Assembly: GCA_008632985.1 (NCBI GenBank)
Contig: QPGO01000025.1
Coordinates: 186,001 to 250,000, forward strand
DNA: 64,000 nt
From: Psammoneis japonica
Taxonomy: Eukaryota
Reading direction: 5' to 3'
Positions 3,497 through 64,000 of this stretch are shown here, in pieces. Positions within the stretch are counted from its first letter, which is position 1, and each line of letters starts with the position of its first letter. Below the pieces are notes generated by a model. The model was given only the letters and a program-made list of their open reading frames with translations, did not search any database and was not told the DNA's origin. The translations under genes were made by a program, and so were the position numbers.

Positions 3497-6219
3497 GAAA
3501 AATGAAAATCCCGATAAAGGCTAGGACAGTCAGCACAGAATTAGCGCTCATCCATTCGAATTACATTGCAAAAAATTAAACCGAAAGACACCACGACCAA
3601 TGCTTTCTTTTTAGAACAAGGAATAGGGGCCTACGGTTTTTTCCCGAGTTCTTGAAAAAGCGTGCGATTGCTGTTGCGTGCTGCATTGGATGTAATCAAT
3701 GCATGATGATGTTGTGTTTTTGCTGCTGTCCTTGCCGCTGTCATGTGTCATGGGTCATGGCTGTCAGATTGGAAATGCGAGCGGTTCCCGGTTCCCGCGC
3801 CCGCCACACAACGCATCACCCACGCCGTGCGCCGGATTGCATTGAGTCGTGGGTCGTGGGTGGCCTTTTGGGTCGTGGGCGTCGGCGTGCGGCGTGGGGC
3901 GTGCGGCGTGAGGCGTGAGGCGTCGTGCGCAGGGCGTCGTGCGCGGCACTCTCCATCTTGAGTCTATGCGTCGACCGTACCGCGCGCGCTTCGCACAGCC
4001 GCCCCGGACCACCTGATAGACTTTCAGAGAATTCAGACAGACGGTGGCGAAAAATGTGTTCCGGTGCTCTTCTGGATTTGGCTCAATGGCTCAATGTGCA
4101 CAGCACAGAGCTTTCCACACCACGAAACACACCAGAAAATGATCGGTGTCGTCGGTGCATTGACAGCCGCACCTTGTGCCGCTTGCAAGTCGTTGTAAGA
4201 TGTGTTGACAAAGTGCACCATGTCTTTGGAATGGCAAAAGTTGGAAATTGTGTTGTTCACATTTGCCCAATGCTGATTGTGTGTGAGATTGCATGTTTTT
4301 CGGTTGTCACACTGACACGGTGCTTCTTTTCATTGTTTTCTTCAACTCGCTTCAACTCGCGCATTTGTCCATTTAAAGTCATGCATCTGAAAGCGCTTTT
4401 GAGCCAGAGTCCATTTTGCATCAACGTGCAAGTGTTGTCATGCTCTGATGAGGATTTGTTGTGTTCAGCTTTTTCTTCAAAATGTGGCGGCGCTTGCCAA
4501 TGGTGCTCTTTCTCTTTGTGGTGAATGCCCCACAGCTCCAAATGCCAAGACAGCACGTTGTTCATCAACATGTGTCAAAGATGGCACTGAACCGCAGCTT
4601 TGACAACCAAGGTGTGTCATGGACTCAGCTTCTGCACACGTGGCGATGCTTGCAAATCCCATCTTTTTGCATGGTTTCATGACAGTTGCCTCGATTTCTT
4701 GTGATTTAGAATGAAAAATGCCACTCTGACAACTCCAGCTCTGCTGCTGAGCATCACAGCTGAGGTTTTGCAACAGCAGAGATGCTGTTTGCATCTGATT
4801 GACTCACCATCTTGTGCTTTCCTCAAGCAGCTTTCTCAGGGGTGTGAAACAGATGGGCGACATGGAGATTTGTGAGATGTTCCACCGGTGGATTGGTTGT
4901 CTTCTGCAATTGGGGAGCAGCCTCCCACAATGTTTCGTCATCACAGGTGAGCCCCACATTGTCATCTGCCATGCCCCAATGCAGAGCAACACCACCCTTT
5001 GTGGGTTTGCTCATGGAGGGGAGCAGCATGCATTCCAACCTCCCTGCCACCCTCTTTCAAGTCACCCAGGGCCCTGTCAGTTCAAGCTCATCATGACAGC
5101 ACTCATTTCTGCACCAATGTTTCTGCATGATCTCTTTTTGGTGCTCAGCGTTGGCATGGCCGTTGTTGCACCGGGAGAGTCATCCTCTGACAACAAGCAG
5201 AAAGTCAAAGGATGCTGCTGCTCAGTCACTCAAGACAGACAGAAGGGATTGGCTGAAAGCCTCAGCAGAAACTTGCAACAAATTTCCAGTCAAAGCGAGG
5301 TGATCTGTCAGTGACAAAAGACCTGGGCTAGAGAATTTTGCAGCTTGTGAATTGTGTTCTGTGAAATCTGTTGTTTGCAAGAAAACATGGGTGGCAAAAG
5401 ATCTTGTGCGAGCATTCCTTCAATCTTTTTCTGATCCTGTCACATTGGATGAGCTCCCATCCCCTTGCAACACATGGGCTCTGTTGTTGCCAGTGCACCA
5501 ACACCGCCCATGACAAGCACTGTGTCAATTCCGTGGGTGGTTCCTCCATCAACTGAGCATCTGCTTGACTGGACACAGTTTCAGCCTGTGTTGTTCTCTT
5601 GCTAAAAATCTTTGTTCGTGGCAAGAAAACATTGCAAATGAATCATCAACAAGGCTCTCAAGTGCAGAGCCCTTGGCTTCTCACAGTTGCACCGTGTTGG
5701 TGCACGGTCATTGCAGGGGGCTCGTTTTTGCATCATTCTGCACTTTTTCATTCATTGTTTTTTGCAGCAGCATTCCACATCATCGTTTGTGCCACTGTGG
5801 CCAGTTTGCTCCATCTGACAGCAGCAGATGGTGTCATGGTGTGTTTTGCCATGGAATCATCATCTCACTGGTTTCGACACGTGTGGCGCATTGGATTGAA
5901 ATGCTCCATTTTCAATTTTTCAGGGTGGCATGTCCCACAATTGAAACAATTGACAGATGAGTGATCTGCCAAGTGCAGCACCGGCCATCCGCAAGAGCAC
6001 CGGAACACATCGTCTGCATGCAACCCTGGTGCATCATCTGTCTGAATTCTCTGAGAGTCTGTGGACAGTCCGGAGGCATGCAAAGTGCACAACACACAAC
6101 CAATGGACAGACAGAGACTCACGATGGACAGTGGTGGCTTGGGGCATGTGGCATGTGGCTTGGGGTGCAGCAGTGCACACTGTGTGTGGCATCATGCATG
6201 CCACATGTGCGGTGTGCAG

Positions 6220-8361
6220 AGGGTCTCACACTTGTGCCTGGGCAGCCCAGCTGTGGCCCAGCCAACTCTGCCAACTGTGGCTGCCTGTCCCTCCTGTGGC
6301 CATTGTCTGTGACATGTTGAATCAGAGGGACAGCACACTCAATCACAATGTCAGAGGAACATGACAAGCATGCAACTGCCGCACACAGACACACACAAAT
6401 GCTGAAGGACAACATGCTGAACCAGCCAGACCACCTTTGCCTCTTCATGGTCCATCACATGTCACTGCTGTCCTTTCTTCCCTCTTGTCTCCTCTCACCA
6501 GCCTCCCGCTGCACTCACTTGCCAGCTCTGTTCCTGCCCAATGTCTTCCCTCCACATCTTCCACAGCTGAGATGGTCTGCAATGCAAGCTCTGCCTCCCC
6601 ACACCAGCCAACCAACAAACTTCCATCTCCCGCCCTTCTTGTGCAGGCACTTCCAACCCCCAAAGTGACCATGCCTTTTGCTGTCACTCCCTGGGACACA
6701 AAACCACCCTTTTCAATGCCACATGCAATGGCCTTTGTGCCATCCTCCAAACTGTTGGCCTGCTCTCCGGCTTTCCCTTTGTGACAGTGACTCCCTCCTC
6801 TGACACAAGCTCTCATGTCAAGAAAACACACAAGCAGCCATGAGCCATGAGCCACTCTCCTGCCTGCTCCCACCCCTTCCAGCTGCAAGACAATGCCTGC
6901 TTGCAGCGCAGAAGAGTCACTTTCAAATGGCAGCAAACAAGATGGTGACATCATTTTTGGCCTGATGGCTCCTTCTCAAAAAGCACCTGACACCAGCACA
7001 AGCAATGAGAGGCTGTTGTCATCACCAAGGCCATTGCACCAGCAGTCAGGCAGCAAAGGATGTTTGTGTTTCAGTTTCCTGGTGTCTTTGAGAAGGCAGC
7101 TGGTGAGTGCATTTGATCTGCCTGCATTTGATCTGCCTGAATTTGCACTTGTTCATGTCATTTGAATCGAAATCTAACTCCATCATGCGTTCTCAAATCA
7201 GATGCACTGGCACTTTTCAAAGGCAAACTGCCAGAAGGAGGGTTCAGCATTTCTGTTGCAAATCAACCACCTGCATTGAGTGCCAACAAAACAAGTCATC
7301 CAAGGACAAAGCATGGCATGACCAATGCAATGAATCCGCGAGCTCCAAGAATGATGCCATCAAGTTGGAAGTGGCAATGGAGAACCACAAGACAGAGCAT
7401 CACTTTGCTGTCATCCTGCAAAAGAAGATTGAGGAAAGATGCAGCTGGCGAGTGCAATGATGGCAGCAATGCAACCAGAGAGCAGCACCTCATTTCTAGA
7501 AATCTGTGAGACTGACAAAAATCAAAAACAAAAAAGAGATGTGTGTGCATTTGAGTCTCCAGCTCAAATGAGATTCAGGACAAAAAAGTGTGACTTGGGT
7601 GCAACATGAACTGCAGCATGTGTGTTGGAGACTGGACAGAGTTCTGGCCCATCAGAATGCAAGCTGCACAGATGTGTGACATGCACAACCAGAGTCAAAT
7701 CAAAACTTCAGTGGATCATCTGTTTGTTGTTTTTGGGTTGATTGATTGAGTTCCTGGAAATTGCATCCCAGTGCCAACCACCATCTTGGGGAAAATTGGA
7801 CGGCTTTTTTTGGCAGCATTTTGAGATTTTGCAAAGCTTGTTCCCTTGCCAAACTTCATGTTGGTCCTGTGTTTGTTGCAACAGAGCTTGTTTGCACAAT
7901 GCACAGTGGCCCCATGGCTTTTTTTATGAGCATTTGCTTGGCTCTCAGTGCCACGTCATCACAACGGGTGGGTGCTGGGTGCCAAACAATGCACATTGAT
8001 GCATGCCATTTTTGTGTGCCAGGCACCCTGCACAGCAATCAGCTGCAGGCACCTGGCTGCCCCTGAGTGCAAATGTGTGCTTGTCATCCTGGCATCTGAG
8101 TTGTGGGTGATGGGTGGAAGGGCTGGTTGTGGACATGTTGGCATCATGCACAGGGCATGTTGGCACATGGCTTTGGGCATCATGTGCATGGCATGTGGGG
8201 TGTGTGGTGCACAGCATGGGGCATTGTGTGCATGGTGCATGGCATGTGGCATGGGGCATTGTGCCCACATGGCACGCAGGGTCTCACACTTGTGCCGGCA
8301 CATGCCAGCCATGGAACTTTGCCAGCCATGGCCAGCCACTTGTCCTCCTGTGGCCATTGTC
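6220..8361 (+). repeat. Dispersed bipartite repeat, two copies
   Basis: agggtctcacacttgtgcc at 6220-6238 and 8278-8296; cctcctgtggccattgtc at 6290-6307 and 8344-8361. Each copy is preceded by ggcatg/ggcgtg-type arrays. Confidence 0.85.
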
Positions 8362-10564
8362 AGCACCATGCTCATGAAGCCATGCATGGCCAAGAAGCTC
8401 AAAGCTGCCAAAGCTGCGCTGGCATGTTTTCAACCCAGGCGGGTCACTCGGGGGGACAACACACAAGGTTTTCTGCACATTTCTGTCACGCAGAACTGTG
8501 CCCAATTTTCAAGCTCCAGCATTGCTTCACTTCTTTCTCATGCTGGTGCTGCCATGTGAAATTGTCACTTTCAAATGCAGCATGCTCCAGCTCAAAGTGG
8601 GAGCTTGCAGCACATGACACAATTGCTTTTGTCATCCATTGCATGTTTCGCACACACACACTTCTCTGTGTGTCCTCTTCCACAGAATTGTCCACACTCA
8701 CTGTTTTGCAAAGCCCAAGACTTTTTGTTTTCAATGCATTCACAGAAACAACAATGAGTGCCAAGTGCATTCTTTGATGTCTGAAAAATGTGCTTGGACA
8801 AACAAGAAACAATGTGCTTTAATGTCAGACAATTTCAATCATTTGCAAAGTTGCCTCTTGTTCTGTTGGTGACCATTGTTGACACATTCCTTGTTGCTCA
8901 ACAATTTTGCTGCAGAGGTTGCACACAGAATTCTGTGGACCCAACCAGCGTCACATGGATTCCCACCCCCCACATCTGGAGCACATCTTGCACACAGTCA
9001 CCTGCCAGGGCTGCAAAGGCAAGAATGAAGGCACTGATCAACTGTTGAGCTGGCAAGTCAATGTCAACAAAAGGGAACCTTGTTTGGCTGTGCTGCTTGG
9101 TGCAATTGCTTGGTTGCTTGCAGTGGCCATGGGTTGCCCAGAAGTTGTCAATGCAAACTTCAAACTTGCAGCACAACAGACACCCAGCAGCGCCGAGTGC
9201 AAAATCATGTGAGTCAAATGATTCACTCCAAAAAGCAAGATGAGCGGAGAGGTGAGAGAGATTGGTGAAAATGAAATCTCAGTCACAAAGAGTTGCCAAA
9301 TTTGCCACATCAGGAGCCCCACATCTTTTCTTCAATCCACCCAGGTGTCTTGCAATTTCCCACCATGACCCAGACATTCCAGCACACTTCTGCTGCTCCA
9401 ACCAGTGCAATGCCAGCCTGCTTTGCATCCAGGGAAATCTGATCCCTGTGTGGAATGTTGGCAACAATGTCACCATGCACATTGGCTGTGTGGTCAACCA
9501 TGTTGTTGAATGAGCATGCAATGCTTCACACATGCTTCACACATGCTCCGCACAAGCACACAAGCACAGTGAGTTCTCTCTCTTGCAACTTTGCTGCATG
9601 GACCAACAATCTGGCCCTTGATCCAACCATTGTCACCTCAGAAGTCAACTCAAAGAACTCCATTCTGTTGCAAGCTCACCAAATGCATCCATGCCACAGG
9701 CAGGACAACTGACCAACAACAACATCAGCAGCTCATTGACAACGCATCTGTCTGGGGCAAACTGCAACACATTGCCCTGCAATCCTGCTGTGTTGCTGTC
9801 ATCTGCACATGATGCTTGATGACGCAACAGTTGCAATCTTCACAGAAACACCTCCAGGCACAACTTCCAACAATTTGCCAAAATTCTTTGGTCTTGTGTG
9901 CCTCCACACCATGCAGCTCAATTTCAGACAACAGCCTTAGATCATCATGAAGGGAGAACATTGGCACAGTGGCAGACAAATGTTTGTGCACTTTGGGGCT
10001 CCAGACTCCTGCAATCTCCTGTGTGCCCTGCATTGAGCTGCACCTCTTCATCCACAGGTCCTGCCACATGGCCTCAAATGATGACAGATCTTCAGGTGAC
10101 CATGGATGAATGTGCTCCCTCCTCTCTCAATCTCCAGATGCATCAGATGCAGATCCAATGCATTGCAGCAGAGGTGTGGGTCTTGTCTCAAATTGCAGTG
10201 GCTGCCATCATTGAACCATTTGATCTCATCTGTTGCCACACTCAAAGAATTGTCTGGGACTTCTTGTCTTCTCTTGACCATCACATCTCCCAGCCTCTTG
10301 AACTTGTCCCAACAGTGCCACAATGCTGTTGCACTGTCATGTTGTGCAGTGCACTGTGCTCATCTTTGCCAGGCTTCCTTGTGATCATCAACGCTGTGGC
10401 CAATGTTTGTGCTGAAGAACAAAACGCCAATGGAACAAGTTGTGACCGGCCAAACCTTGCAGTGCATGACATCTTCCAGGTTTCAGGGTTCTTTCCTCAC
10501 ATTCTCATTGGATGTCACAAACAGGAAGCACTCCTGTCATGCCTGAAGTTGACAGCCCTTGATG

Positions 10565-12430
10565 GCTCACTCAAACTTTCAGAGCTTCTTGCACTGCAAT
10601 GGCAGTCCAGTCTTGCATGAAGTCTTCAAGCACACCATTGGCAGGAGAGCGCTGTGCTTTTAGACTGCCCTTCTCACTCTGATTGGTGACAAAAAGTGCT
10701 GGTGAACATTGAGTGCTCTGGACAACTTTCCAGCATTCCTGCACCCACCAGTCTCCAAAATGGTGCAGCACTCTTGTTGTCCTGATGCATGATGTTTTTG
10801 TCAACTGGGCGCCATTGATGCTCCATGAATGACTTTGTCCACAGGATCATGGCTGTTGCATCATCAATCCCTGCAAGTTCTGCTTCAGGTGTTGAGCTTC
10901 TGGTGTTTTGACATTGCCTGCACTGCTCCATTCTCCATGGTCACAACTCCTCCTGTGCAGCTCTCAAAGTCTGAACAGCGCACCTCAAATGATTCACCCA
11001 CATGCCACTTGACAGCTGGGGAGGTCATTTGCACTCAATGTGGCATCTTCATTTTGTGCTTGGGGCTCAAATTCTTGAGACAACAACTGGCTTTCCCCAG
11101 CGCTTGTTGGCAGGCTCTCTGACCCGTGCACACCACCATGCAGCAACAGCAGGGCGCACATCCACATGTGGCCTCTCTTGGACATGAATGGCTCCTTGGC
11201 CACCCACACATGGAATGTCTTTGCTTTCTTGGTTGGTGATCTCATGCCACCAGCATCAAACAGGTTCTCTCCAGCTGGCATCATGGCAGCATCTGCACTC
11301 TTGATCTCTTCTGAGAACTGATTGATCATCTTGTCAACACAGTTGGTGGTTGTGTTGACCTTCGCCTTTTGTTCCCTGTGGCTGCAGCCCAGGGTCCTTC
11401 CAAGGTGGCCACCACCCTTCTTTGCTCATGATGTTGCAATGACATTTTGCCACAGCTCCCATGCATCTTGTTTGGCCAGCTCAAAAGTTTGTCAGCGGTG
11501 CTTTTGGGTCCTCATTGTGGCTTGCCAATGGGTCATCCATGTGGAAACGCACAGTGTGGTGCTTGCCATTGACCACTCAATTGGCAACACATGGATTGCA
11601 TGGGTTGAACTCAAACTCTGTCTTCTTCAAGAAGCATTTGAAAAATTATTTGCACTGCAGCAGAGCTGCGGCTGACATGCTGTGTGCAGCTCTGATGACT
11701 TGGGTTCTTGCAGAGGACACTCTTCCCCTTTTCCACAACCACATGTGGTCCACATGGGTTGGGGTCAATGCTGGTTGGCATGTCAACCAACACTCCTGTG
11801 AGATCTTCATCATGATCTGGTCTTTGCCTTCCTCAGGCTCCAAGATCAAGGTCTGTGCAAACGCGCTCGGCACATTGGCGCTCATCACATCATGCTCTTG
11901 CTCAGCTTCAACCACAGCTGTCATCAGCATTCCTTCTGATGCTGCTGCCAGACCAGCTGACTCATCCTTGTCCAGCCATTCTCTGGTCAGTTTTCCACTG
12001 CAAAACATTTGCCCTTTCTCATGTTGCCATTTGTTTCTCCGTCAGGAACATCGGAGCAACCACAACCTTGGTCCTCTCACTCAGAGTCATGTCCTTCACT
12101 GATGCCAGTGCAAAGCACACTTGGCTGTGCAGTTGTTCAATCACTTTCTCTCAAGCATCATGCCCCCTCTGGCCAAATGCTTTTGGGCCTTCATGCAGCA
12201 AACATTGTTGAGCAAAGGAAACACCCTTTCCTGGTTGGAGTCGGTCATCAATCTCACAGCACGTGATTGTGCCAGCAGCACCATTGCTGTTTCTGCATTG
12301 CACTCAATGTTGTCCTTTGGATTGGGGCTCATGTTTGTTTGTAAATGATGGCAGTGTTGAGCTTGTTTTGCTCTTGTTCCATTTCATCAGAGTGTGCCAT
12401 CCCTGCAAATCAAACCTTCTTTTCCTGTGT
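10565..12430 (-). mobile_element. Degenerate Ty1/copia (diatom CoDi-type) pol fragment: RT and RNase H
   Basis: Remnant motifs across frameshifts: GKLTREWLDKDESA..ANVPSAFAQT..IMMKI (RT), PAGENLF..FHVWVAK, and NTRSSTPEAELAGIDD..ILWTKSFMEHQ..KNIMHQDNKSA (copia RNase H, canonical YQDNKS). Confidence 0.9.
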
Positions 12431-12565
12431 TCACATGATTTGATGTTGAAGGATGCACCAAAGGTTGCACCGCTCCAGTGGTTTTTCTGCCAGATGCAGC
12501 TCTTGCCTTTTCCTCCAATCTTTGTCCTTCCCATCTCTTGTCTTCTTGGGATTCATCATCATTTT

Positions 12566-12824
12566 CACCAAGTGGACTGAAGTGTGCTCTTTCGATTGCC
12601 TCTCAATCGAACATGTTTCCGGGTGTTGCACAGTGCGACACATCGGCAATGTGAGTGCCAATTTCACATTTCCCTTGTCCTGTGGATTTGATCAATAAGG
12701 CGTCATCAAAATCTTTGGCATCTATTTGGTCTACGGTAAATGTTGTGTCCTTGGTGAACTTTGTCGGGATTTTCTGAGCAGGTTTTTCGACCGCATCGGG
12801 AAATTTGAATTGCAAGCCAAACTC
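12566..12824 (-). pseudogene. rnr: Bacterial-type RNase R (RNB domain) fragment
   Basis: EFGLQFKFPDAVEK..TTFTVDQIDAKDFDDAL..GKCEIGTHIADVSHC..PG..D*EAIERA/TSVHLV matches the RNase II/R motifs DAKDFDDA, HIADVSHY and RATSVYLV. One stop, one frameshift and an apparent internal deletion. Confidence 0.85.
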
Positions 12825-12925
12825 GCACCCGGATGTTTCAATAAAAATTGCGTGAAACAACCACTGGTTTACCGGTATATATTTTTATTACATACCATGT
12901 ATGAACCAAAAATTTACGAGTTTAC

Positions 12926-14114: not shown

Positions 14115-15431
14115 GATGTGTTTTCATCCCAGGTGAGAAACTTTTGGACACATCACGAGGTTTTCTACGTGTTTCTACATGAGACGTACATTTAGCACCA
14201 AAAATCTTAGTAAAAAACGAGCTCCATGACAGTAAAAATGTGTTTTTCCATGTCTCGAACCACAAACCACAATTCGCGCAAACCGAAAATGGCACCATGC
14301 CGTCGCCATGAACTCGTCCATTCTCACACCAACGGATGTTGTGACTGAGAAGGCAAGAATGCCGAGACAGGTCAACAAGACAACGCTCAATGCGATGATG
14401 TGGTTGAAAATTTGATCTTTGTTTTTTGTTGTGCCTTGTGGACAGCCTTTTGACTCATGACATTTTTGATGCCTCTTTCTCTCTTCCTCAGCTTGCGAAG
14501 CAGGATTCTCATCAACGCGCTGCTCCATCCACTTGACACCGGATGCTGACAACGAAGAATGTTTCCATGACACGTTGCTGTGATTCTTGCAATGCATTGT
14601 CCGCACTTTGAGTCGTCATGGACGACGCTTTTGGGTCGCGCGACAACATCAGATTTCGCTTCCGACAAGAGAATCGTCATGTGCTCGGTTTTGAGGGTGT
14701 GTGAGGATAAAGAATCTCAGATGCAAGTGTGACAGTTTCATCATTGTAAAGCAGAACAATGCCATTGGCGACATCTCAGTGTTGCAGCCATTTTGTTTTA
14801 TTCTAAGATAGAACCAGTCATTTTGAGCGGTGAAATTTTGTCAACATTTCATCTTTAACTCTGCTTGGGCATGTCAAATCACATGACAACTGGACACACA
14901 TTGAACTTTGACGCCACTGTTTCAATCCCATTGTTTTATTCACTCAAGTGTCCCACACAGGTCGACAAATCAGTCGATCTTTGAAATGGCCGATCGCGCA
15001 AAAAAATCACGTGCGAAGTCAGTTCCCCCGATTTTTCTCATGCAAACAACAGAGTTAGAACGCCGTTCTTTTTTGGCATGAGCTCTTTGTGCAATGAACA
15101 ATGCGTGCATTCTTTCAAAGCAGTCAGATTCGGTGAAAGAAACAGCAGAATGGTCTCTCAAATGCACCAGAATGACAACAACGAGCAGACAGCTGTCAGT
15201 TTCACTCCAAAAAATGCCGCTTTCGAGACAGCGCTTTTCTTGCACACACCCTTCAACCAATGAGAATGACAGCTGGCTTTTCAAAACAAACATGTCTGTG
15301 GAAAGAAGAAACGAAAAATCGGGGGAAAGTCCAGTCAGATTTGCTCGCACAAAAAGCACGGCGATGGAAAAGGGACAGACGAAACGTCTCACCTCCGCAT
15401 GCGCGTTTCTCACCTGGGATGAAAACACATC
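14115..15431. mobile_element. Non-autonomous TIR DNA transposon (MITE-like, 1317 bp)
   Basis: Perfect 27-bp inverted repeats (gatgtgttttcatcccaggtgagaaac at 14115-14141 and 15405-15431) flanked by the 4-bp direct repeat GCTC (14111-14114, 15432-15435). Confidence 0.9.
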
Positions 15432-17705
15432 GCTCGAGATCTGCTGGACCCAAAACCTTGCTTCATCCCGCAGCACCAGCACAGATGACAAGACAGCCAA
15501 AAGGACTTTGCACAATGATTGGCTGCAAAAAGAGGAGTGCAATCACTGCAAAAAGCACAAAACAGAGCATCCCCGACAGCACATCTGCCAGAAAGAGCAT
15601 CATCCGCCGCAAGAGCCAGTGTCGGCGCAACGCCGCCACAACAAGATGAGAAGCAACATGGCCACGTCAACTTTGCTGACCCTGTGGGGAAATTTCCTTG
15701 GAGGGGCATTGCACTCTTTGTCATTGTCAAGGGACTTGAGTTCCAAAAGCTCCTGGTGCTCATGCAGCAGAAGGGGAGAGCATGTGGGGCAACCTTGCAG
15801 TGACCAGCCAACGGATGGCATGATTGGGAGCTCCTCCTTGAGGAGACCCCAGGCAAGTTGCTGTGACTGTGAGTTTCTTGTTGGAGCAAGGAGGCTCCAT
15901 TCTTGCTGACAGCTGAGTCAAAGGCTGCTGGGGTGACTTCACAAACATCCCCCCAACAGTGCATGCAGAGACAACTCTTGCAGCCAGCACGATGATTGCA
16001 GGGGGGTGGGGGGATTTTTCCACCTCTGGAAATCTTCCACACATCGCATTTTTCAGATTTTCTGTCTGTCATCTTCTATGCAAAATGGTCTGTGCACAAG
16101 CATCACTCCAGCCAGACCAGCAATGCCAGCTGCCACATGTGTGGGTTTGAGGGTTCCTCTCAGCACACCATGCAGTGCAAGTGGACAAGCCACTTGCTTC
16201 ACAGAGTTGTCATTCGTCATTCATGATGGCCTCAAATGCAACTGCACAATGGAAAATCTTTTTTTGCCACAGTCAATCTGCTGCTGCTTCATTGCTGTTT
16301 GCCAAACAAACGTCGCACACAGCAACCAAGATCAATCTTTCCCGCAGCATTTTGCTGTTTCAATTCAGGGTGAACTCTCCTTTGCCATGCAGAAAGATGT
16401 GCAAAACAAGTGCCAGATTGTTGGGTGCAACTAAAAATGACACACCATGGTGCTGCTGCGATTGCTTCCATTTTTTCAACATGCTGCACCCTTGTCAGGT
16501 TCACCGCCTGTGCCGCTGCAAGGTGGGCAACTCAAAGAGACACCACAGCATGCGTTGAAGATCAGCTTGAACTGCTTGTGGGTGCCATGAGCCTTGCAGC
16601 AATGCTCTGACATGGTGCAGAGAAGTTCAGAGTCAGTGAGTGCCAGCTCAGACATGTTGGTGTGAAAGCACTGCCTTTTCTGTGGCAAACTGCCTTGCGA
16701 CACTTCAAAAGAATGGAGAAATTTTAAAATGACCAGTTGGAGGTTGCTTGGAAAGAAGGGTGGCACTTTTGGAAACATTGCTGTGATGCATTGTGATGCA
16801 CTTCAAAAAACAATCCAGAACACAGACTTGACACAAGTTTGCACACAACTTCCACATTGAAAGCGGGACTTTGTTTTTTCCTTCCACTGTTTGCCAAGTC
16901 CTTGAGATTTAACTGGGGTGTTCTCTCAAGGTGCACTTGGCTGCAGTGGGAGAAAGGAGCAAAAGACTTTGACAAGCACTCAGTGCTGCTCTGTTGCTTG
17001 TTGTTTTTCACCCAAAGAACCAGGCAATCTTTTGTGACAAGGCACACAAAGATTGGAAATGTGGTGTTGCAGGCATGGCCAAGTTTTTTGATGACACAAG
17101 TGGGCACCAGTGGTTTTGACAACCCAAATGCCAGCAGCAAGACACTGAGCATTTGTGTTCTGGCAGTCAGCCTGGTGGTGAACTGCCGCAGGCACGTGTG
17201 AGTGCTGCAGCATTGTCAGTGGGATGCCAAGCACTGGCATGGTGCATTCCAACAGTCAGCTCCAACTGCACCATGCATGGACAAACTTCACAACATGCTC
17301 AATGGGTGTCAGTGGCTGTGTGAAATTCCCGCTGCAGATCATGTGTGATGCCCCAGACACTGGTGTGCATGCGGTGCTTCTTGCTTGAGCTTGGTGTTGT
17401 TCGTTGAACCAAGTCTGACCACAAGTGTTAAAAATGTGCAGATTTGCATGATGACAATTTGTCAAAATGTTGCAAAACATTTTTGTTGTGTGATGAAAGG
17501 CCAACCTCTGGTTGCAAGTTTGCCACACCAATGTTGCAACAACTTGTTGAGAATCATGCATGATGTGTTTCTCTGTGTCCACATCACCACATCTGCCTCC
17601 ACCTTGTTGCCATGTGCCAATGCGTGATTGCATTTCCACACAATCCTTGGTTTGCCAATTTTCACAAACATCATTTTAAATGAGAAAAGCATTTCATCGG
17701 TTGAG

Positions 17706-23859: not shown

Positions 23860-23940
23860 TGGGAGAAGTCACATGCGCGCCTGGTGGGATTTGGAGTTTT
23901 GCACACAAAAACCCACCAGACGTGCATGTGACTTCTCCCA
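23860..23940. repeat. Hairpin-forming inverted repeat (29-bp arms, 23-nt spacer)
   Basis: tgggagaagtcacatgcgcgcctggtggg (23860-23888) vs the reverse complement of 23912-23940; 2 mismatches. Confidence 0.92.
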
Positions 23941-41690: not shown

Positions 41691-41863
41691 CCTCTAACTA
41701 GAGAGAGTAGAGGCTACGTCCAATTCATGAAGAATTTAAATCTCTATTAATACGCTGCTTGTTGTTAATAGGATCCGAACGTATCTCTTGATTGAGGACG
41801 GTGAGCAAAGATTTGAACGCTGTTTCCTATTTCGGTGTTTGACAACATTGTAGGACCAATTCA

Positions 41864-56599: not shown

Positions 56600-59500
56600 A
56601 AAGCTTGTGAGCACAAAGGAATTTCACATCTGCAAAACAAGAATCATGATCCCTTCTTCATCAGTGGTGTCCTCCTCGCCATCGCTGGTGCTGGTGACCT
56701 CCCCACTGGCTGAGGCACCTGCCATCTGTGCCTGCAGCATCTGTGCCTGCAGCTTGAAGTGGCAATGAGAGGGCAAGGTGGCTCAGGATGCTCCAAGCTC
56801 ATGAGAGCTTGGGAGAGTGCTGCACCAAGAAGAGCGGATCCACACACACTGCTGACTTGGCAGCGAGCGGGTTTAGAGCAAAACGCTTTGATGCCCAAAG
56901 CTTGCATGCCACCAGCAGGCAATGAAGCCAGAGATTGAAGTCATGTTTGAATGGACAAGCAAAAAAAGGAGGCAACAGATCAAAGTGCACAAGCTGTTGC
57001 AGCAGCAGGCCTTTCACTCGCAGCAGTCGAGGTGGGCAGGTGGATGGGGGCTGCATTGCTTTTGCTCAAAGTGCAACCACGATGCAACTGAAAGGCCAAG
57101 TCATGATCAACCATTGCCAGGTCAGATGAAATTGGGACAGTGGTGGCCAAACCGTGTGGGTCAGGCTTGCCTGAGGAGCTTGCAAATTGATCCTGTGGTG
57201 TGAGATCTGCCACAAAATCAGAAGGGAGGAACAGTGCCACTGTGGCAGGCAAACCATTGGTGGAGAAGGAACAGGGTCAGACCAGACAGCATCTGTGCTC
57301 ATTGAGGCAAGGCTCTCAGCCAATTGCTTGGGGAGAGCAATGTCTGCTGCCCAAATCTAGCCAATGAACAGGAGGTCAACAAGGCATGGCAGCAGTTGAA
57401 AGATGCGCGGCACACTGCACAGCAGGAAACTCTTGAAGTTGCCTGTGCATCCATGAGTGAGGTCAGAACAGGGCAATCCATGGATGCACACTGAGCAAGG
57501 GTGGGGGCATGGCTGTTGATGAGCACTCAAGCTGGGAAAGCAATGAGGCTTGCAAGGCATCCAGACAGCATGATGGATGGCACTGCCAGCCAAGACAACA
57601 ACAAGCCAGGGCTGTCAAAGGACCAGGCTGCTGAAGATGCTTTGCAGCAGTTGACCACAGGGTTGAAAGGTTGCTGGGCACCAAAACATGGCCAGGGCCC
57701 AAGGTGGGCACAGCTGACCAACCCACTGGGACAGAGACAGACTCCTCTTGTGCAGAGACATTGTGAGCCTGTGAGGACAACTGCTGAGAAAGAGTGCATG
57801 TTGCCGCAGTGCAGAGGCAGCATGCAAGCAAGTGCACACCTGCACAGGTGCGCCACTAGAAAGCATGGTGGCATGATTTGAGCAGCATGCCTCAGGGGAA
57901 TGAAGGCAAACACAGTCATTGGCAAGGAGCCAGTTGGGTTGGGAGGGCTGCTGCACAGCAGTGGTCAGATTGTTGGTGGTGGCCAAGAGGCCCAAGGCAA
58001 TGATGGTGGGCATGGTTGTCACAATGCAAATCCTGATGAAGACCACCTCACAGTTTTGAGAGCTGAAGTGGCTGACCACACTGGGACTCACTGGGATGGG
58101 AGACCACCAGGATGGCCAAAACCATCCACTCCAGAACAGAGAAGTTGCCAACAAGGATGTGAGCAGACCATTTCCAAATTTGGCCACAATGGCCATTGAA
58201 GCAGATGCTGGTTGGCATTGCTTCCTTCCTCTGTTGCATTGCTTGCAGGCACCCTCATTGCGCACCTCTTTGCATCCACCTTCTCTGGTGCTGACCTGCT
58301 CTGCTCTGGTCAATTTGGCACTTGGCATCCATGGTGGACTTTCTTGTCCACCCTGTCCACACCAACATTGAATGCTGTCCTCTTCCCATTCTCAACCCCT
58401 TCAGCAACTGTGCTTTGCTTCACCTGCGCCAAGAGCCATGAGACCATGCTGTCTCCAAGAACCACATCAGACACACATGTCACCTGTGCTGCCATCACCG
58501 CACCATGACCACCATCATCATGACTGCCCCCCTCATCCCCTTGGAGGTCTCCACCACTTTCAACAGAATGTCTTGCTCAAACCCACAGCCCTGCACCCTG
58601 ACCACCCCTTGAAATCCCAGCCAATGTTGGCACACAACTCATCTCTGGCTCCACCCTCCCTGGTGGTGCCCGCTGCCTCTGTGCATCTTTTCTGGGCCAA
58701 CAAGAAGGTTGCAGTGCCTCCAGCCCCTCCCTGCCCTGCACCTGGTTTGCCTGCCCCTGACAACCTCCTTGCTGAGGCTTGCCTCAGCAGCACTTGGAAC
58801 AAGCTCCTGGGGTGCAATGCTCCCTCTGTCAGGCTTGTTCCAGCCCCAGGTGATGAGCAATCCATCATGTGAGAGGCCAATTTTCTGTGCAGTTTGGCGC
58901 ATTAAACTCCTTCTAATTTGATCGTTTCAAAAATCAAAAGATGAGTGCACACACAAAAAACAAAAATTTTGTGTGCACTCACCCTTTGATTTGGGAAAAA
59001 ATGATTTTGAAGGAGTTTATTGCGCTGAAAAAAAAATGGGCTGTGATGGGAATCAAGCCTGTGCGCATCACCTGGAGCTGGAGCAGGCCATCAGCAGCTC
59101 ATCTGCCAGCTCCACCACCAACCAAGCCAGCCTCTTTCTCCTCCCTTTCATCATCAACCACCTTGGTGGAGTTGATTGCCATTTCTGCACCTTCTTCTTT
59201 GGAAACTCCTGCACCCCCTCCTCTTCTGCACCCCTCATCCATGCAAAGTTTCCTCTCCTTTCCTCTTGTCCTTGATTGCTTGCCAAACCTCCCTGCTTCC
59301 CATGCCTGCAAGTCTCCTTGCTCAAGTCAACTCAGCCTGGAAGCAACCATTCTCCAACATCTTTGCATCCTCCCACCACTCATCTGCCCCCCAAGCCTGG
59401 GCTGCCCAACTTCTCAGCCTCGGCTCTGGAGCTGCCTCTCCAAAAGCCTTTCTGCCGTTCCTTCCTCCCTGCCTTTTCCTGTCCATCTGTCTGTGCATGA

Positions 59501-62500
59501 GGGAATTCATGGCATTGACCTGTGGTGCAAGAGCATGTGGCCAGGGCCTCTGGCAGAGCAGAAGTGTGACATCCAAAAGGGACAGGGTCCACTGGACATG
59601 CACGCACGAAAAAACCACAAGCCAGAGAGCAAATGCCGCACCTCTGGCGGGAAGAACCACGGTTCTCCTCACAAGGGTGTGAACAAAAAAAGGCAAAAGG
59701 TCAAGATGTTCAAGTCAATCAATTGATTGAATGACCCAATGAGACTGATGAGGAGGAAAACCAATCGATGTTGACTCCGATGAACACCAGTGCCAATTCT
59801 GCACAAAATGCACACACCAAGAAAACAACATTGAAGAAGACAGTCATTGTGCCCCATGACCACAACACGTGCAACAGGAATGAAAACAAAGAAAAGGAAG
59901 AACTTTCAGAAGAACTCAAGATGACAAAGGAGGATCATGTGGAAGATGTGGAATCAGACAAGGAAGAAGAAGAACACAACTGTGAAAACGCCTTTGATGA
60001 AGAGGATTCATCAAGGACACCACCATTCAACCAGATCAACTCAAACAAGAGAAGGAACAAGAAGAAGGAAACAGCAAAGGAGAAACAGAAAAACACAATG
60101 AATCAGACGTGGAAACAACAGAAGACAAAGAAGACACAGAAAATCTAGAAGAAGATCCAGCTGAAAGCCTTGCAAGCCAGAATCATCAAGACTCATTGGC
60201 AATGGCAGAATCCAAGGGAGAGGAAGATGAAGAGGAGGTGGAAATGTGGACCATCAGATGCAATGCATTGCTTGCCACTTCAACAACAGCCAAGCCATTC
60301 AATGAGACCTCAAAAGCACTGGTGCAAGCCTTTGAGATCATCCAGAGCATTCTCAGAGACAACGCCTACATTGGAACTTGGGACCCAGATCTTGAAGAGA
60401 CACGTGGAGTGCAGAAATCTCCAGAAGACATTCCAGAAGACAAAGCTCAAGATTGAGAGCTTTTTGGTGCATTTCTGGGAGTGGGTTGCTTCAACCCTCA
60501 AGTGAATCAAGAGCATGCAACTTGTTGCTCAATCTGCTTCCCTGCAGAGGGACAACCGAGATGTCAACCAGATGATTTTGGCACAACACTCTGTGGCACG
60601 ATGGAAGAAACAGAGGTGGGGAAGTTCTCAGTGGCAAGGAACCCTGTTTCTTGCCAGGCCACCCACTCTGAATGTGTTGGATGGCTCTGCTGCAGCTCAA
60701 AAATGATGACGGAATGGACTCTCCACCACCCGATTCGTCACTGTTTGGGTGTCAAGGACCCGACTCTTCTGGGACTCCAATGGAGGACCATCTGTGGAAC
60801 CGATTGGAAAAGACCAAAATCTGACAGAGACAACCCAAAGAAGAACCCCGTGGCTGCTCACATTGATGCAGAAGTGCATCACGCCTGCACAGCGAGGACC
60901 GCAGCAGAAAAACTGTGGAGAGTTGAAGCCAGAAAGAAAGTCTTGGGCCTCACCTTGTGCTTTGCACCACATGCTGTTCTTCTCAGGCCCTTCAGCATGC
61001 CTCAGACAATGTCAAAAAGAACATGACAGAAGTGGTGCAACATCAACACTGCTTCATGGAACAAGTGCCAGGTCAAGTGGAACATGAATTCTTTTGGGAC
61101 TTAGACTCCACTGTCAAAGACCATCGAGGACAAGACATCCACCTTTGTTGCTGCCTCATGAGGAAACACATTCTAGATCCCACCATGGCAGACAAGAGGA
61201 AGGCAAAAATGATCCCACTCTTTCACCACATGGATCAAAAATGGAGCCAACTGTTGGAACATGTCAACCACATTTCCAAGAAAGATGTGTGCTGAAGCAA
61301 TGAAAACAACAAACAATTTGATCCCTGAAGTGTTGTGCAACCTCGGTCCTGACACAGCCTCCTGGTTCAAGGCCAGCAGCACAGTCATCTGCCAGCATCA
61401 TGAACACAATCCCACAACAGGAGTGATGTCCTCCAAGGAAAATGAAAAACTTCTTGAGATCATTGATTGCGATCCGTGGGGAATGGGAAAAAATTGGCAG
61501 TCCAACATGAGTGCTCAGCAGCAAGCACACCAAAAACAGGAGTTGTTGAAGCCAACCAAACCACCAAAGAAAAAACAGGATGAGACAGCCATGAAACAAG
61601 CAGCCCAACATCTAGAAAATGCTGACAACACCAGCTCAAATGGCATTGCAAGAAACAAAGACATGGACACCACACATTCTCAATCACAAGGCGACAAGTC
61701 TGTTGCCTTTCAAGGATTGGAGAAAGTGGGAGGAACCACAGAAAAGAAGGAACAAGATGATGAACCTCTTGCTGCCACCCCATCAACAAGAGACAAACTG
61801 GCAAAAGCAGAAGCCAAACTTGCCAAACTGTGTGAGAGACCACCAGGTGTTGCAGATCTCTCATCAAGTCTGACCACACCAACAGATGAAACAAGCAATC
61901 AAGCGGCAAATGACTCTGCACCATCTCACAGGTCAAAGGGGATGGACAAGACCCCTGAGCCAAAGCATCCTCAATGATCCCATTGGCGATTGCCTGAGGA
62001 GGATGTAAAGACAGAAAATCCAGGCTGACAAACTGACAAATGGTGGGGAGACTCATTGGAATTGAAAATGCAGAGTGTCTGCAATTTTGCCATCCACAAC
62101 AACATTGGAGGGCTGCCCATGTTAAAGACCAGATGCAATGAGCACAACAAGCTTGAACAACAGATGACAAAGAGCAAGGTCAATGCCGTGGGCATCATTG
62201 AAGCAAACCTTAACTTCAAGAGGACACCAAAAAACCAACAGTGCTGGAATGATTGATGGCATGCATTGTGAACCACAAATGAACACCACTCAATGTCTGG
62301 AAAGAAACAATGCAGAGGAGCAGGACACTTCATCCAACAAACACCAAGTCATCACCTCACATCAAAAGGAAAAGATGACACAAGATTCAAAGGCAAGGAT
62401 GGCATCCACACAAGGATGATGACAGCCTGTTGCCCTGTGCATGACAGGACAGCTCACCCAGGTGCAGTTTGCAGCCAACACTCTGCATGCATGCTTGCTG

Positions 62501-64000
62501 TCAAAACAAGACCAGAGAGATCCAAGAACAGCATTCCTCAAAGATCTGAACTGTCAGATGAGACAATGGCAGGAACAAGGTGATCTGACAGCACTGGGAG
62601 GAGTTGACATTGACGAAAACACTCAGAACATGGACATGCTGTCCTGGATGAGATCACTGCATCTGATTGATGCACCAATCATCCTCCATCCACAACCATC
62701 AACTGTGGCAACCTGTGACAAAAATGGATCCGAAATCCCAACAGACGGAATCTTCATGTCACTGGCATTGGAGGTTCGATGAGGTGGAATGACAGGTTTT
62801 GGAGAGGTGGATCATGCATCGGATCACAGATTGTCATGGACAGACATCAGAAAATCCAGTGTTTTTGGATGCACACCTCTGCCTCTGGCAACTGCAAAAC
62901 CAGATGGACTTGCAGGCAAACTGAACAAGCCTGAGGTGGTGAAGAAATGCAATGACATCGTGTGCAAGATGATGATTTCTTGCAACCTTTTGAGCAGAGC
63001 AACAGCGCTGGAGAACTGCAACAAGTTTGGTCTGGAGGAACAGCTTGAGCATGAAAGCACATTTGAGGAGAACAGGAAGATGCAGCAGACAGCAAAGGAA
63101 AAATGCAGGAAATTGTTCATGAACTCAGCAGAATCTTCAAACAAGATCAACAAGGCAAGGAAGGAGATGCATCTGTGGAAATTGATCCACAGATTCCGAT
63201 TCAGATGCAGAGCACCTGTGAGAAAGATTTGATGATGGATGAGACATGCAGGGCAGATGGATGCCTTTCAAATCCCAGCTGAAGGAATTGAGACACAACA
63301 GAAAGCTGCTGTGAAGGAGCACAGGAGACTCAAGAAGCAGATGGATTCAAAGCTGTGACAAGATGAGTTTCAGTCTAGATGCGCAAAGACAGTGGAGAGA
63401 AACAAAACAATGGCGGAACACAAGGAGAAGCTCGTTGGCCATTCACATCATCAACAGAAGAGTTGCAAGCAGAAAAGCCCGTCATGCAATGTGAGCTGTC
63501 GCCAGGCCAGGCAGGTGAGGAGCAGACAAAGAACATTCTTCCAAACAAGGAGTTGAGAAGACATGCACAACAGAAGGCAGAAACAGATGCAGCCAGACCT
63601 TTGCTCCCGGGAGCACAGTGCTGTTCATGAAGTCACCTTTGCTGGATGACTTTGGATGTCTGGCAGATGCACTGGCTGCCAAGCAAGTGTTGCAAGGAAT
63701 GCATGTCCCACCGCCAGGTGCGGAAGAGTGGACAGCAAAATTCATTAAACAACTCAAACGTCCGGATCTGACACTTCCACAATTGGATGCGAGATGTTCC
63801 ATGGAAGAGCACATCCACAGCTGGAAAAAGATGAAAGGACACATGTCCAGCAGCCCCTTTGGACCAGCCTTCTCCAATTGCAAGGAAGGATGTCAACACC
63901 CAATGGCAGCAAAATTTGATTCCTGCATTTGATTCCTGCATGTCCGCCATCCCATGGAAACAGGGATGTGCACCAAAGTGCAGGTCCAAGGTGGCAGATG
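56600..64000. other. TpA/CpG-depleted island D
   Basis: TA is lost abruptly after ~56600 and stays rare to the window end. Confidence 0.9.
59720..64000 (+). mobile_element. Degenerate non-LTR retrotransposon: ORF1 relic (~59720-61977) and APE-endonuclease ORF2 (~62060 to beyond the window)
   Basis: NIGGLP..GIIEANLNF, RFKGK..TACCP..GAVCSQH, DPRTAFLKDL..WQEQGD, PTDGIF..SDHRLSWTDI (APE); pre-RT region DFGCLAD..GMHVPPPG..SWKKMK..SSSPFG. Confidence 0.85.

Follow-up and report, generated by a model that had tools for sequence, protein, structure and literature searches.

Near-complete loss of TpA from sharply bounded islands in a diatom-like genome suggests in situ hypermutation at T-A-Y sites

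Results

Four TpA-depleted islands between ordinary genes

The window, by which we mean the whole analysed stretch of 64,000 nucleotides, carries diatom-type FCP (fucoxanthin Chl a/c protein) genes, and its gene space is interrupted by four islands that are almost free of the dinucleotide TpA. Together the islands comprise 29,806 bp with 77 TpA (2.6 per kb, observed/expected ratio (o/e) 0.01-0.06), whereas the four stretches of gene space around them (34,194 bp) hold 1,366 TpA (39.9 per kb, o/e 0.52-0.60). In the island cores (28,254 bp), 69 TA were observed while about 1,126 would be expected from the background rate. The transition in TA content is 100-200 bp wide at all seven edges that lie inside the window. 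An earlier note on this DNA had described four nearly TA-free islands of some 30 kb, ordinary genes between them and boundaries within a few hundred bp, all of which is borne out by these counts. A search of the window for tRNA genes gave none.

Island 1 (3700..12700; 17 TA in 9,001 bp, TA o/e 0.03, CG o/e 0.26) consists of TA-free, CG-poor repeat relics with TG and CA o/e values of 1.83 and 1.97, and is covered at a depth of 130-895 in sequencing run X1, compared with 46.5 for single copy. A putative copia-like pol remnant resides at about 10500-12100 on the minus strand and features the motifs HQDNKS (10770-10787, minus strand) and FHMDD. Its identity as copia was not confirmed by Pfam, PDB or protein searches: phmmer with the ORF at 10997-11425 (minus strand) against 1.84 billion representatives returned 11 short unannotated fragments (best E 4.6e-9), a Pfam family is present in none of the 12 aligned members, and a search for longer relatives of the HQDNKS ORF found none. 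The right edge of the island is spanned by an RNB (DIS3/RNase R-like) gene fragment (12606..12884, minus strand; Pfam RNB, E 3.3e-11, above cut-off), the homology of which fades deeper into the island; the adjoining ORF gave no PDB match.

Island 2 (14300..26040; 43 TA in 11,741 bp, TA o/e 0.056) shows moderate CG loss (CG o/e 0.585) and is a mixture of a very high-copy repeat family and low-copy stretches, with X1 depth ranging from 5,149 to 27,749 across 12 bins in 17005-25008 and from 97 to 172 in 15671-17004. Island 3 (39937..41599; one TA in 1,663 bp, TA o/e 0.01, CG o/e 0.20) is an unclassified block of 1.66 kb between an APS-reductase gene on one side and an ARM-repeat gene on the other, and the best Pfam match of its ORFs is a weak, sub-threshold one to TYW3 (E 2.8e-4). 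Island 4 (56600..64000; 16 TA in 7,401 bp, TA o/e 0.035, CG o/e 0.17) is likewise CG-poor and extends past the end of the window. It encodes the motif DFGC in an ORF at 63519-63929 (plus strand); for the LINE proposed to reside here there is no Pfam support, and PDB searches with two ORFs from this island gave nothing relevant. A Pfam scan of 260 stop-free island ORFs (23+146+91) resulted in three notable matches, i.e. RNB, Plavaka and TYW3, the remaining ones (E up to 0.05) being below the cut-offs and chance-like. Self-BLAST of the window revealed neither LTR pairs nor repeats internal to the islands.

Dinucleotide balance and its relation to CpG decay

When islands are compared with background, TA changes by -37.4 and CG by -34.6 per kb, while CA and TG rise by 43.1 and 31.5 per kb; 11 of the remaining 12 dinucleotides stay within ±8.1 per kb (AA +2.3, TT -7.2), the exception being GpC with +14.1, in a bookkeeping that assumes island ancestors of gene-like tetranucleotide content and a CpG decay that feeds TG and CA to the same extent whatever the flank. 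GC content is 0.49-0.50 in the islands and 0.47 in the background. This mass balance supports the earlier claim of a distinct process that turns TpA into TpG or CpA by transitions on both strands within sharply bounded islands, and with TpA o/e at 0.01-0.06 and GC at 0.49-0.50 the direction is indeed, as had been stated, opposite to that of fungal RIP.

The depletion of CpG inside the islands, which had not been stressed previously, is real: CG o/e is 0.17-0.26 in islands 1, 3 and 4 and 0.585 in island 2 but 0.94-1.01 outside. The island CpG deficit is matched by a gain in TpG/CpA, as in the decay of CpG through deamination of 5-methylcytosine, and the islands are predicted to be methylated. 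CpG methylation of diatom transposable elements has been documented (PMC9998398). Such decay resembles the TpA process in that it affects the same islands and raises TG and CA, but TpA is out of its reach, and the extent of one loss is uncoupled from that of the other. Among the 500-bp island windows, 11 of 55 combine TA o/e below 0.1 with CG o/e above 0.6, the TpA process thus being separable from CpG decay, in line with the distinction from 5mC decay drawn in the earlier note. The edge segments 3700-4000 and 14300-14700 combine absence of TA with a normal CG content, and within the islands TA o/e and CG o/e are weakly correlated (Spearman 0.37, p 0.006).

A Plavaka-like relic and the direction of change

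A transposase relic in island 2 (19919..22728, plus strand) was delimited by tblastn of 23 relatives and of P0001, a relative that is 62% identical to it. The relic is read across at least three frames and includes one ORF of 476 amino acids without in-frame stop. We label it Plavaka-like only, because its match to Pfam PF18759 (E 4.8e-4, 19.9 bits) does not reach the gathering cut-off of 26.3; the match of relative L006 to the same family is sub-threshold as well (E 2.8e-4, 20.6 bits), and none was obtained for relatives L002 or P0001-P0005. A search with the N-terminal ORF of the relic gave no relatives of near length.

Tyrosine makes up 0-0.3% of the residues in three ORFs of the relic, in which cysteine and histidine are raised, compared with 1.7-4.0% in host ORFs. 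Ten of the 18 tyrosines of P0001 are replaced by Cys (TGY) and four by His (CAY) in the relic, one still being Tyr, while other residues are largely kept (Cys 10 of 13, His 14 of 22, Trp 10 of 10). P0002-P0005 were too distant for inclusion in this tally, with identities of 37-39% in the main alignments and 42% in one N-terminal segment. Where the family is conserved, Tyr is retained at 2 of 14 positions, whereas Phe, Trp, Cys and His taken together are retained at 41 of 51. The family-conserved TAC codons at 20463 and 22118 survive. Comparison of the RNB fragment with DIS3L2 and RNase R in PDB alignments gives GSYK>GKCE and HIADVSHY>HIADVSHC, both in its TA-free part. The motif strings quoted in the earlier note, HQDNKS, HRAHPDC..PWHD (22297-22341, plus strand) and DFGC, were all found in the window. 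Its broader statement that Tyr reads as Cys or His in unrelated elements holds for the Plavaka-like relic (14 of 18 positions against P0001) and for two RNB positions, whereas the identities of the elements it named as copia and LINE are unconfirmed.

That note had also raised the question whether the same families elsewhere are equally TA-free. All 23 metagenomic relatives of the Plavaka-like relic have normal TA (o/e 0.43-0.72), and the family is thus not intrinsically TA-poor. Since none of the 23 is TA-depleted, the footprint itself was not seen in a second sample.

Sequence context of TpA loss

The 69 TAs that survive in the island cores are distributed very unevenly over their flanks. 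RTAY is represented by none, mixed contexts by 22 and YTAR by 47, compared with 368, 723 and 231, respectively, in the background (chi-square 127, p 3e-28), and no island of the four retains a single RTAY. Where TA was flanked as R-TA-R, it gave CA in 73-84% of cases and TG in the remainder, a range that spans the four islands taken singly, with half of the CG loss assigned to each product and the assumptions of the bookkeeping about gene-like tetranucleotide content and equal CpG decay applying here too. Survivor contexts and product direction agree on a ratio near four, i.e. T-A-Y is lost about four times faster than T-A-R. Apparent relative rates follow the order TAC ≥ TAT > TAG > TAA, with TAG (0.91) at about one third of TAY (2.45-2.98). 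This rule on the 3'-neighbour is new in this analysis. The two conserved TAC codons mentioned above lie in the favoured context, and some of the surviving island TAs may be new mutations. TpA is palindromic and T-A-Y equals R-T-A on the other strand; therefore either A or T may be the target, and A-directed chemistry at T-A-Y is indistinguishable from T-directed chemistry at R-T-A.

Accuracy of the bases and copy number

All sequencing runs located belong to a single sample. Run X1 derives from the very sample used for the assembly and is inferred from contig statistics to consist of accurate short reads. An X1 contig matches window positions 7468-7890 without a single difference in 423 letters and contains one TA where 16.9 are expected. 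Contigs built from X1 only match island stretches with zero differences at k-mer depths of about 39-61 and contain 0.99 of the words sampled from 36000-45999, a region that includes island 3. X1 contigs thus reproduce TA-free stretches exactly, so that the long-read base-calling artefact against which the earlier note had advised a check is unlikely. Paralogous X1 contigs differ by 1,109 transitions versus 296 transversions, and at least four adjacent swaps between CA and TG occur among 40 of the 1,431 differences, as expected if copies were hit independently after copying.

The earlier description of the process as repeat-targeted and RIP-like is not clearly supported by copy number. A near-single-copy stretch inside island 2 (16064-17195; X1 contig depth 61 compared with 46.5 for single copy) is TA-free, while a short high-copy element with (CGTTCCAAAAG)n tandem units just outside this island (26320..26900; X1 depth about 2,000-4,700, roughly 100 copies, 10 contigs at 26362) has normal TA (o/e 0.76 for 26001-27000). 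TA loss thus seems neither to require a high copy number nor to follow from one. TA-free parts span X1 depths from 61-172 (low-copy) to 27,749 (high-copy), and TA is unaffected in a pair of 800-bp paralogues with 79% identity, the duplication comparison covering copies diverged by up to 20%. The anatomy of the islands may point to recruitment by a silent-chromatin state rather than by copy number. Contigs from run X2 cover 9 of 30 bins, all outside the island cores, and those from run X3 none of 30, which has no bearing on transcription.

Discussion

Possible agents and alternative explanations

The observations are best explained by a process that would hypermutate, in situ, blocks of silent DNA, both transposon-derived and otherwise non-genic. 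Either strand would be affected, and A:T would be changed to G:C at no dinucleotide other than TpA, such that TpA becomes TpG or CpA. The target would best be described as 5'-T-A-Y-3', the process would have run almost to completion, and it would be superimposed on the ordinary and slower decay of CpG to TpG/CpA in methylated DNA. We consider this TpA-specific hypermutation in situ to be very probable. The agent may be a TadA/ADAT2-type adenine deaminase acting on DNA, which would convert A to inosine, read as G, and be recruited via silent chromatin. The whole of this explanation, deaminase and recruitment included, appears more likely than not, while the assignment to a deaminase is, taken by itself, tentative. 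Position 33 of the tRNA anticodon loop is a U, and the native site of TadA/ADAT2 is A34 followed by C, so that it reads T-A-C, the fastest context observed here. Early adenine base editors exhibited a 'YAC' preference. Among adenosine deaminases, ADAR is listed with the context 5'-UAG and TadA/ADAT2 with 5'-ACG in anticodon position 34 (PMC10661471, Table 1), and the T-A-Y preference would fit TadA/ADAT2 better than ADAR or Pol-eta. The TadA/ADAT-type enzyme suggested in the earlier note is thus a reasonable candidate; the ORFs of the window revealed no deaminase.

The most serious competitor, to which we assign a minor share of the probability, accepts the same in situ process at TpA but places the chemistry on T or on a modified base, either by TET/JBP-type oxidation of T in R-T-A to 5hmU/5fU or by deamination of N6-methyladenine at TpA. 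5-Formyluracil mispairs with G, and both 5hmU and base J occur at TpA. The palindromic nature of TpA leaves room for either base, given that the data are A:T>G:C changes for which T-A-Y equals R-T-A, and methylated CpG, which is likewise a palindromic YpR step, offers a parallel that would suggest a maintained mark. Yet TET/JBP and MT-A70 genes were not found in the window, the sole 2OG oxygenase being a 2OG-FeII_Oxy_2 protein (33284-34633), and the preference for T-A-C/T resembles the anticodon context of TadA/ADAT2. It is improbable that one deaminase with dual specificity for A and C caused both the TpA and the CpG losses, with no separate methylation-driven decay. Two palindromic YpR steps are converted to TG/CA in the same domains, their o/e values show the weak correlation given above, and ADAT2 enzymes deaminating A and C in DNA are cited in a preprint (bioRxiv 10.64898/2026.01.13.699255); but the extents are uncoupled, as exemplified by island 2 with a TA o/e of 0.056 at a CG o/e of 0.585 and by the TA-free edges with normal CG. 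According to the same preprint, moreover, the mutations in Bigelowiella natans are with hardly an exception A>G or T>C changes (210 of 211 and 20 of 20), and the CpG methylation of diatom transposable elements would provide a route of its own for the CpG loss (PMC9998398).

The other explanations have very little probability left. If a long-read basecaller had miscalled modified bases in repeats whose true sequence contains TA, the common origin of X1 and assembly and the known modification-dependent systematic miscalls in nanopore data would be in its favour; however, the agreement of X1-only contigs at the depths given above is beyond noisy long reads, a miscall on both strands would not yield clean TG or CA alternatives, and neither the YTAR survival pattern nor the 4:1 product bias is explained by miscalls. 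Even less can be said for editing prior to integration by ADAR- or APOBEC-like enzymes acting on RNA or cDNA, or for families that are TA-poor by nature or selection. Here, the 5' U favoured by ADAR and the probable presence of retroelement relics are outweighed by the fact that all classes of sequence are affected, i.e. the DNA-transposon-like relic, the 1.66 kb block, the near-single-copy stretch and the RNB fragment, and this on both strands; TAG, the ADAR optimum, is about threefold slower than TAY, swaps between CA and TG indicate independent hits after copying, and the 23 relatives with normal TA speak against families poor in TA by nature. Error-prone repair of the Pol-eta type (WA>WG) recruited to methylated DNA, the second candidate of the earlier note, is just as improbable. 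TA is one of the two WA motifs, but AA and TT are not depleted along with it, and a rule for a 3'-pyrimidine is not known to belong to the WA signature.

Comparison with known systems

The earlier note knew of no description of such a process, which is outdated. According to a preprint, B. natans features TpA-only A:T>G:C hypermutation of integrated viral DNA in mutation-accumulation lines: in the silent viral inserts, A>G/T>C changes at TpA arise with a rate of about 6e-7 per site and generation, the de novo rate is about 1000 times background and active only in some lines, an ADAT2-like deaminase with DNA-editing residues is the proposed agent, and RT and DDE domains are enriched among coding sequences low in TpA (bioRxiv 10.64898/2026.01.13.699255). 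The process proposed here is by analogy probably of the same kind. Both show A>G/T>C at TpA only, leading to TpG/CpA and in the long term to TpA depletion with CpA/TpG enrichment, and both affect sharply bounded blocks and spare host genes, here with a TA o/e of 0.52-0.60 and with silence predicted. The targets in B. natans, a chlorarachniophyte (Rhizaria), are single-copy NCLDV and virophage inserts with partial depletion (Rho 0.45), whereas in our window the transposon relics have dropped to o/e 0.01-0.06 and show CpG decay as well. The diatom-type FCP genes of the window would make this a second lineage. The main text of that preprint uses none of the words 'trinucleotide', 'CpG' and 'diatom', and a literature search, which covered a minority of subscription journals, gave no description of TpA hypermutation in diatoms.

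Fungal RIP is similar in that it permanently inactivates invasive or repeated DNA by mutating it on the spot, with a dinucleotide context and some leakage at the edges. It differs in that it changes C to T mostly at CpA, thereby raising TpA and lowering GC, whereas here TpA is erased and GC kept; RIP also needs duplicated sequence and a sexual phase, while copy number does not appear to be predictive in our case. TadA/ADAT2 and the adenine base editors derived from TadA share the conversion of A to I, read as G, but the natural substrate is a tRNA loop, and activity on DNA has been engineered or, as cited in the B. natans preprint, reported for a few ADAT2 enzymes. ADAR and APOBEC likewise provide defence by context-dependent hypermutation through deamination, and ADAR favours a 5' U; they act, however, on RNA or single-stranded DNA intermediates, and APOBEC changes C to T. 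The ADAR optimum is UAG (PMC10661471, as tabulated there), whereas TAG is a slow context here and DNA-transposon-like as well as non-coding DNA is affected.

Implications

The one earlier report of targeted A:T>G:C hypermutation of DNA is the 2026 preprint on a chlorarachniophyte. If the reading favoured here is true, the saturated footprint in a diatom-like genome would show that the process is no peculiarity of a single lineage, would extend its targets from integrated viruses to ordinary transposons and would place it in a group amenable to knock-outs, methylomes and mutation-accumulation lines. The T-A-Y rule makes a definite biochemical prediction by which TadA/ADAT2-like enzymes can be told from ADAR and Pol-eta, and a natural DNA adenine deaminase, if real, would be of interest to base-editing work. 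There are also consequences for annotation. TA-free relics are devoid of TAA and TAG stops and therefore contain long spurious ORFs, while the changes of Tyr to Cys or His conceal them from profile searches, as seen from the three notable matches among 260 island ORFs; a bias in the repeat and gene annotation of such genomes is therefore to be expected. Finally, one may speculate, though we consider it doubtful at present, that diatoms and chlorarachniophytes, perhaps SAR protists generally, share a TadA/ADAT2-derived DNA adenine editor with T-A-Y preference that is directed against silent foreign DNA. If so, this editor would permanently clear transposons and integrated viruses of TpA, and hence of all Tyr codons as well as TAA and TAG, and would constitute a eukaryotic genome defence that is a counterpart of RIP and APOBEC with adenine as its target.

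TA-free islands and their boundaries

With 1-kb and 200-bp scans, and with edges placed from TA positions, four almost TA-free blocks were delimited: island 1 at 3700-12700 (17 TA, observed/expected ratio (o/e) 0.03), island 2 at 14300-26040 (43 TA, o/e 0.056), island 3 at 39937-41599 (a single TA, o/e 0.01) and island 4 at 56600-64000 (16 TA, o/e 0.035), which extends past the window end. Together they hold 77 TA in 29,806 bp, compared to 1,366 in the 34,194 bp of the four intervening stretches of gene space (o/e 0.52-0.60), and in the island cores (28,254 bp) 69 TA were observed versus about 1,126 expected at the background rate. GC content is the same inside (0.49-0.50) and outside (0.46-0.49). 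The state changes over 100-200 bp at all seven island edges within the window, bearing out the near TA-free islands with sharp boundaries described in an earlier note on this DNA.

Some structural features are situated close to these edges. Island 1 has a (CGTGCGG)n array (3874-3925) at its left edge, where segment 3700-4000 is TA-poor and CG-rich, and a perfect 34-bp tandem repeat of two copies (3429-3497) is found nearby. The right edge of island 2 is flanked by a 39-bp inverted repeat (97% identical, arms at 25550-25588 and 27721-27759) whose arms may be the two ends of an element of 2.2 kb residing half within and half beyond the TA-free zone. Contigs from X1 and X2, two sequencing runs of the assembly's own sample, connect 13901-14083 with 15444-15614 through 30 other letters. 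They thus reveal a second copy or allele, compared with which the 1.36 kb stretch 14083-15444 is an insertion.

That the TA-free state is an artefact of sequencing or assembly is highly unlikely. Bases were checked against Logan contigs, each made from one run's reads only and thus separate from the assembly procedure, albeit from the same biological sample, the only one whose runs hold window DNA. X1 contigs, with a single-copy k-mer depth of about 46, account for a fraction of 0.99 of the words sampled from 36000-45999 (island 3 included) and reproduce island stretches exactly, as at 7468-7890 (0 differences in 423 letters; 1 TA versus 16.9 expected). The X1 library type is unrecorded, but its contigs cannot derive from noisy long reads, and modification-driven miscalling would leave the ordered TA context pattern unexplained.

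Replacement products and direction of change

Relative to the background, the islands have lost 37.4 TA and 34.6 CG per kb and gained 43.1 CA and 31.5 TG, i.e. a total loss of 72.0 versus a total gain of 74.6 per kb. Eleven of the remaining 12 dinucleotides shift by at most 8.1 per kb (TT by -7.2), and GpC rises by 14.1. It follows that TG and CA arose from both self-complementary pyrimidine-purine steps and that no other change is comparable in size. CpG loss in the islands fits the decay expected of methylated repeats; CpG methylation has been documented for diatom transposons (PMC9998398). TpA loss is neither explained by CpG decay nor coupled to it: in island 2 CG o/e is 0.585 at the TA o/e of 0.056, in 11 of 55 windows (500 bp each) inside the islands TA o/e <0.1 coincides with CG o/e >0.6, and edge segments 3700-4000, 13900-14100 and 14300-14700 have normal CG although they are TA-free.

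The direction of change can be read from relatives of the Plavaka-like relic (19919-22728, +). A relative of its ORF 20924-22351 in the public protein collection, P0001 (62% identity), covers 21029-22728 in two frames by tblastn. Its 18 Tyr residues correspond in the window to Cys codons (TGY) in ten cases, His codons (CAY) in four, Tyr in one and other residues in three, as against retention of 10/13 Cys, 14/22 His, 10/10 Trp and 29/31 Phe. The replacement of Tyr by Cys or His previously noted for this element is therefore confirmed at 14 of 18 sites. At family-conserved sites (at least 60% agreement among at least six relatives, scored over P0001 and the longest ORF from each of 23 metagenomic relatives), the relic retains 2 of 14 Tyr, the remaining 12 being Cys (4), His (2), Phe (3) or other (3), versus 41 of 51 Phe, Trp, Cys and His. 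All 23 related loci show ordinary TA (o/e 0.43-0.72, minimum 1-kb value 0.34), and the family is thus not intrinsically TA-poor. Two of the elements, on metagenome contigs L002 (3597-6827, 1,077 aa) and L006 (512-4018, 1,169 aa), are intact single ORFs with normal TA and could serve as outgroups for the relic's ancestral state. Tyr content is 0-0.3% in relic ORFs, with Cys and His raised, and 1.7-4.0% in host ORFs, which are long and uninterrupted. The right edge of island 1 falls within a fragment of an RNB (DIS3/RNase R-like) gene that reads GKCE for GSYK and HIADVSHC for HIADVSHY of RNase R, and homology is lost deeper into the island.

The term Plavaka-like derives from two sub-threshold Pfam matches to one domain, in the window relic and in the intact 1,169-aa relative; this domain was not found in L002 or in protein relatives P0001-P0005. 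The copia label of another island element reflects motif resemblance together with hits to fragments without annotation, and the LINE identity proposed earlier finds no support from any tool in island 4. In gene space, a light-harvesting gene (51183-51866) resembles fucoxanthin chlorophyll a/c proteins (E 1e-94), with top-matching entries that we take to be from diatoms, whereas the chlorarachniophyte antenna is of the green type, and the window therefore does not come from Bigelowiella natans. An 85-bp unit downstream of an HSF-type gene is perfectly duplicated in tandem (37604-37774, 2.0 copies, 100% match). Genes for a 2OG-Fe(II) oxygenase (2OG-FeII_Oxy_2; 33284-34633, +) and a JmjC/cupin protein (31728-32408, +) reside in the gene space between islands, with no apparent link to hypermutation.

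Context rule and targeting

The 69 core survivors are non-random by context (chi-square 127, p 3e-28): 47 are Y-TA-R (background count 231), 22 are R-TA-R or Y-TA-Y (723) and none is R-TA-Y (368), the latter being absent from each of the four islands alike. TpA is palindromic, such that Y-TA-R presents a purine 3' of A on both strands and R-TA-Y a pyrimidine on both. A simple two-strand decay model, which draws on few survivors per single context, yields apparent relative rates of 0.48 for TAA, 0.91 for TAG, 2.45-2.53 for TAT and 2.70-2.98 for TAC, and predicts a survival of 0.249 for CTAA/TTAG versus 0.217 observed. In a survivor-independent, strand-symmetrised product test with CG loss split half to each product, R-TA-R flanks gained 136 CA and 70 TG per 10 kb; 79% of these conversions (73%, 84%, 81% and 80% in islands 1-4) fit attack on the pyrimidine-followed A. 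Survivor and product measures agree on a ratio of about 4, on the assumption of gene-like tetranucleotide content in the island ancestors and of flank-neutral CpG decay.

Twelve bins of island 2 (17005-25008) belong to a very high-copy family (X1 depth 5,149-27,749 versus 46.5 for single copy), and island 1 is of moderate copy (130-895). Depth is 97-172 in the island 2 stretch 15671-17004, and a 1,132-letter X1 contig of depth 61 over 16064-17195 has 4 TA versus 45.1 expected. A short element adjoining island 2 on the outside (26320-26900; X1 depth ~2,000-4,700) has normal TA. It contains two (CGTTCCAAAAG)n arrays (26422-26470 and 26849-26898) and similar 'CCGCCAAATAGCTCCAAC' heads. Two paralogous 800-bp segments of gene space (1750-2552/29798-30599, 79% identical) are likewise unaffected, with normal CG and ordinary divergence (86 transitions, 56 transversions); the second copy overlaps a PAP_fibrillin ORF. 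Copy number thus looks neither necessary nor sufficient for TA loss, and the targeting of repeats as such proposed in the earlier note may not hold. Island 3, a 1.66 kb block, is flanked by two genes. The process seems to act domain by domain, echoing the single-copy, transcriptionally silent viral insert of Bigelowiella natans, and we infer that chromatin state is the guide. Paralogous X1 contigs differ from the window by 1,109 transitions and 296 transversions; four adjacent CA/TG swaps occur among 40 rows of the 1,431 differences, the expected outcome of independent strand hits on one ancestral TA or CG in separate copies.

Comparison with known systems and possible mechanism

The earlier note knew of no prior description, but the full-text literature searched holds one, a preprint on B. 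natans (bioRxiv 10.64898/2026.01.13.699255). In mutation-accumulation lines, 231 of 302 nuclear single-nucleotide mutations fell into integrated NCLDV and virophage DNA; 230 of these were A>G or T>C (NCLDV region 210/211, virophage region 20/20), every GC-biased mutation was at TpA, the rate was ~6e-7 per site per generation and activity was seen in some lines only (bioRxiv 10.64898/2026.01.13.699255). Reverse-transcriptase and DDE domains are enriched among low-TpA coding sequences, and an ADAT2-like deaminase is the proposed agent; the terms 'trinucleotide', 'CpG' and 'diatom' are absent from the preprint's main text (bioRxiv 10.64898/2026.01.13.699255). No description of the footprint in diatoms was found in the literature searched, which lacks most subscription journals. 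The window thus provides a further case of this kind of process, in a different supergroup lineage. It differs in that the targets are transposon relics hit to near-saturation, that CpG decay coexists and that a T-A-Y rule is added.

Silent domains would accordingly be hypermutated in situ by A:T>G:C changes specific to TpA, a reading that we regard as very probable; editing before integration has only a very small probability. RIP is ruled out, since it acts by C>T and raises TpA, which the islands lose. A Pol-eta-like process (WA>WG), one of the candidates named earlier, was likewise rejected and retains at best a slim chance, as AA is untouched (+2.3 per kb). The tRNA site of TadA/ADAT2 has U at position 33. 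The T-A-C/T preference resembles this site, where A34 is followed by C, whereas an ADAR-like process is ruled out by slow TAG here versus a UAG optimum (PMC10661471, Table 1). A DNA-acting adenine deaminase of the TadA/ADAT2 type would perform the TpA change, an assignment that we make tentatively; T-directed oxidation or a 6mA route is rather unlikely, and a single dual A/C deaminase behind both TA and CG losses is less likely still.

The process also bears on annotation. Probably because TAA and TAG stops are impossible there, the islands hold long open frames on both strands, e.g. 9823-10617 (+), 15082-15909 (+) and 19453-20292 (-), for which a search for family matches returned none. Such long, family-less frames run the risk of being mis-annotated as genes.
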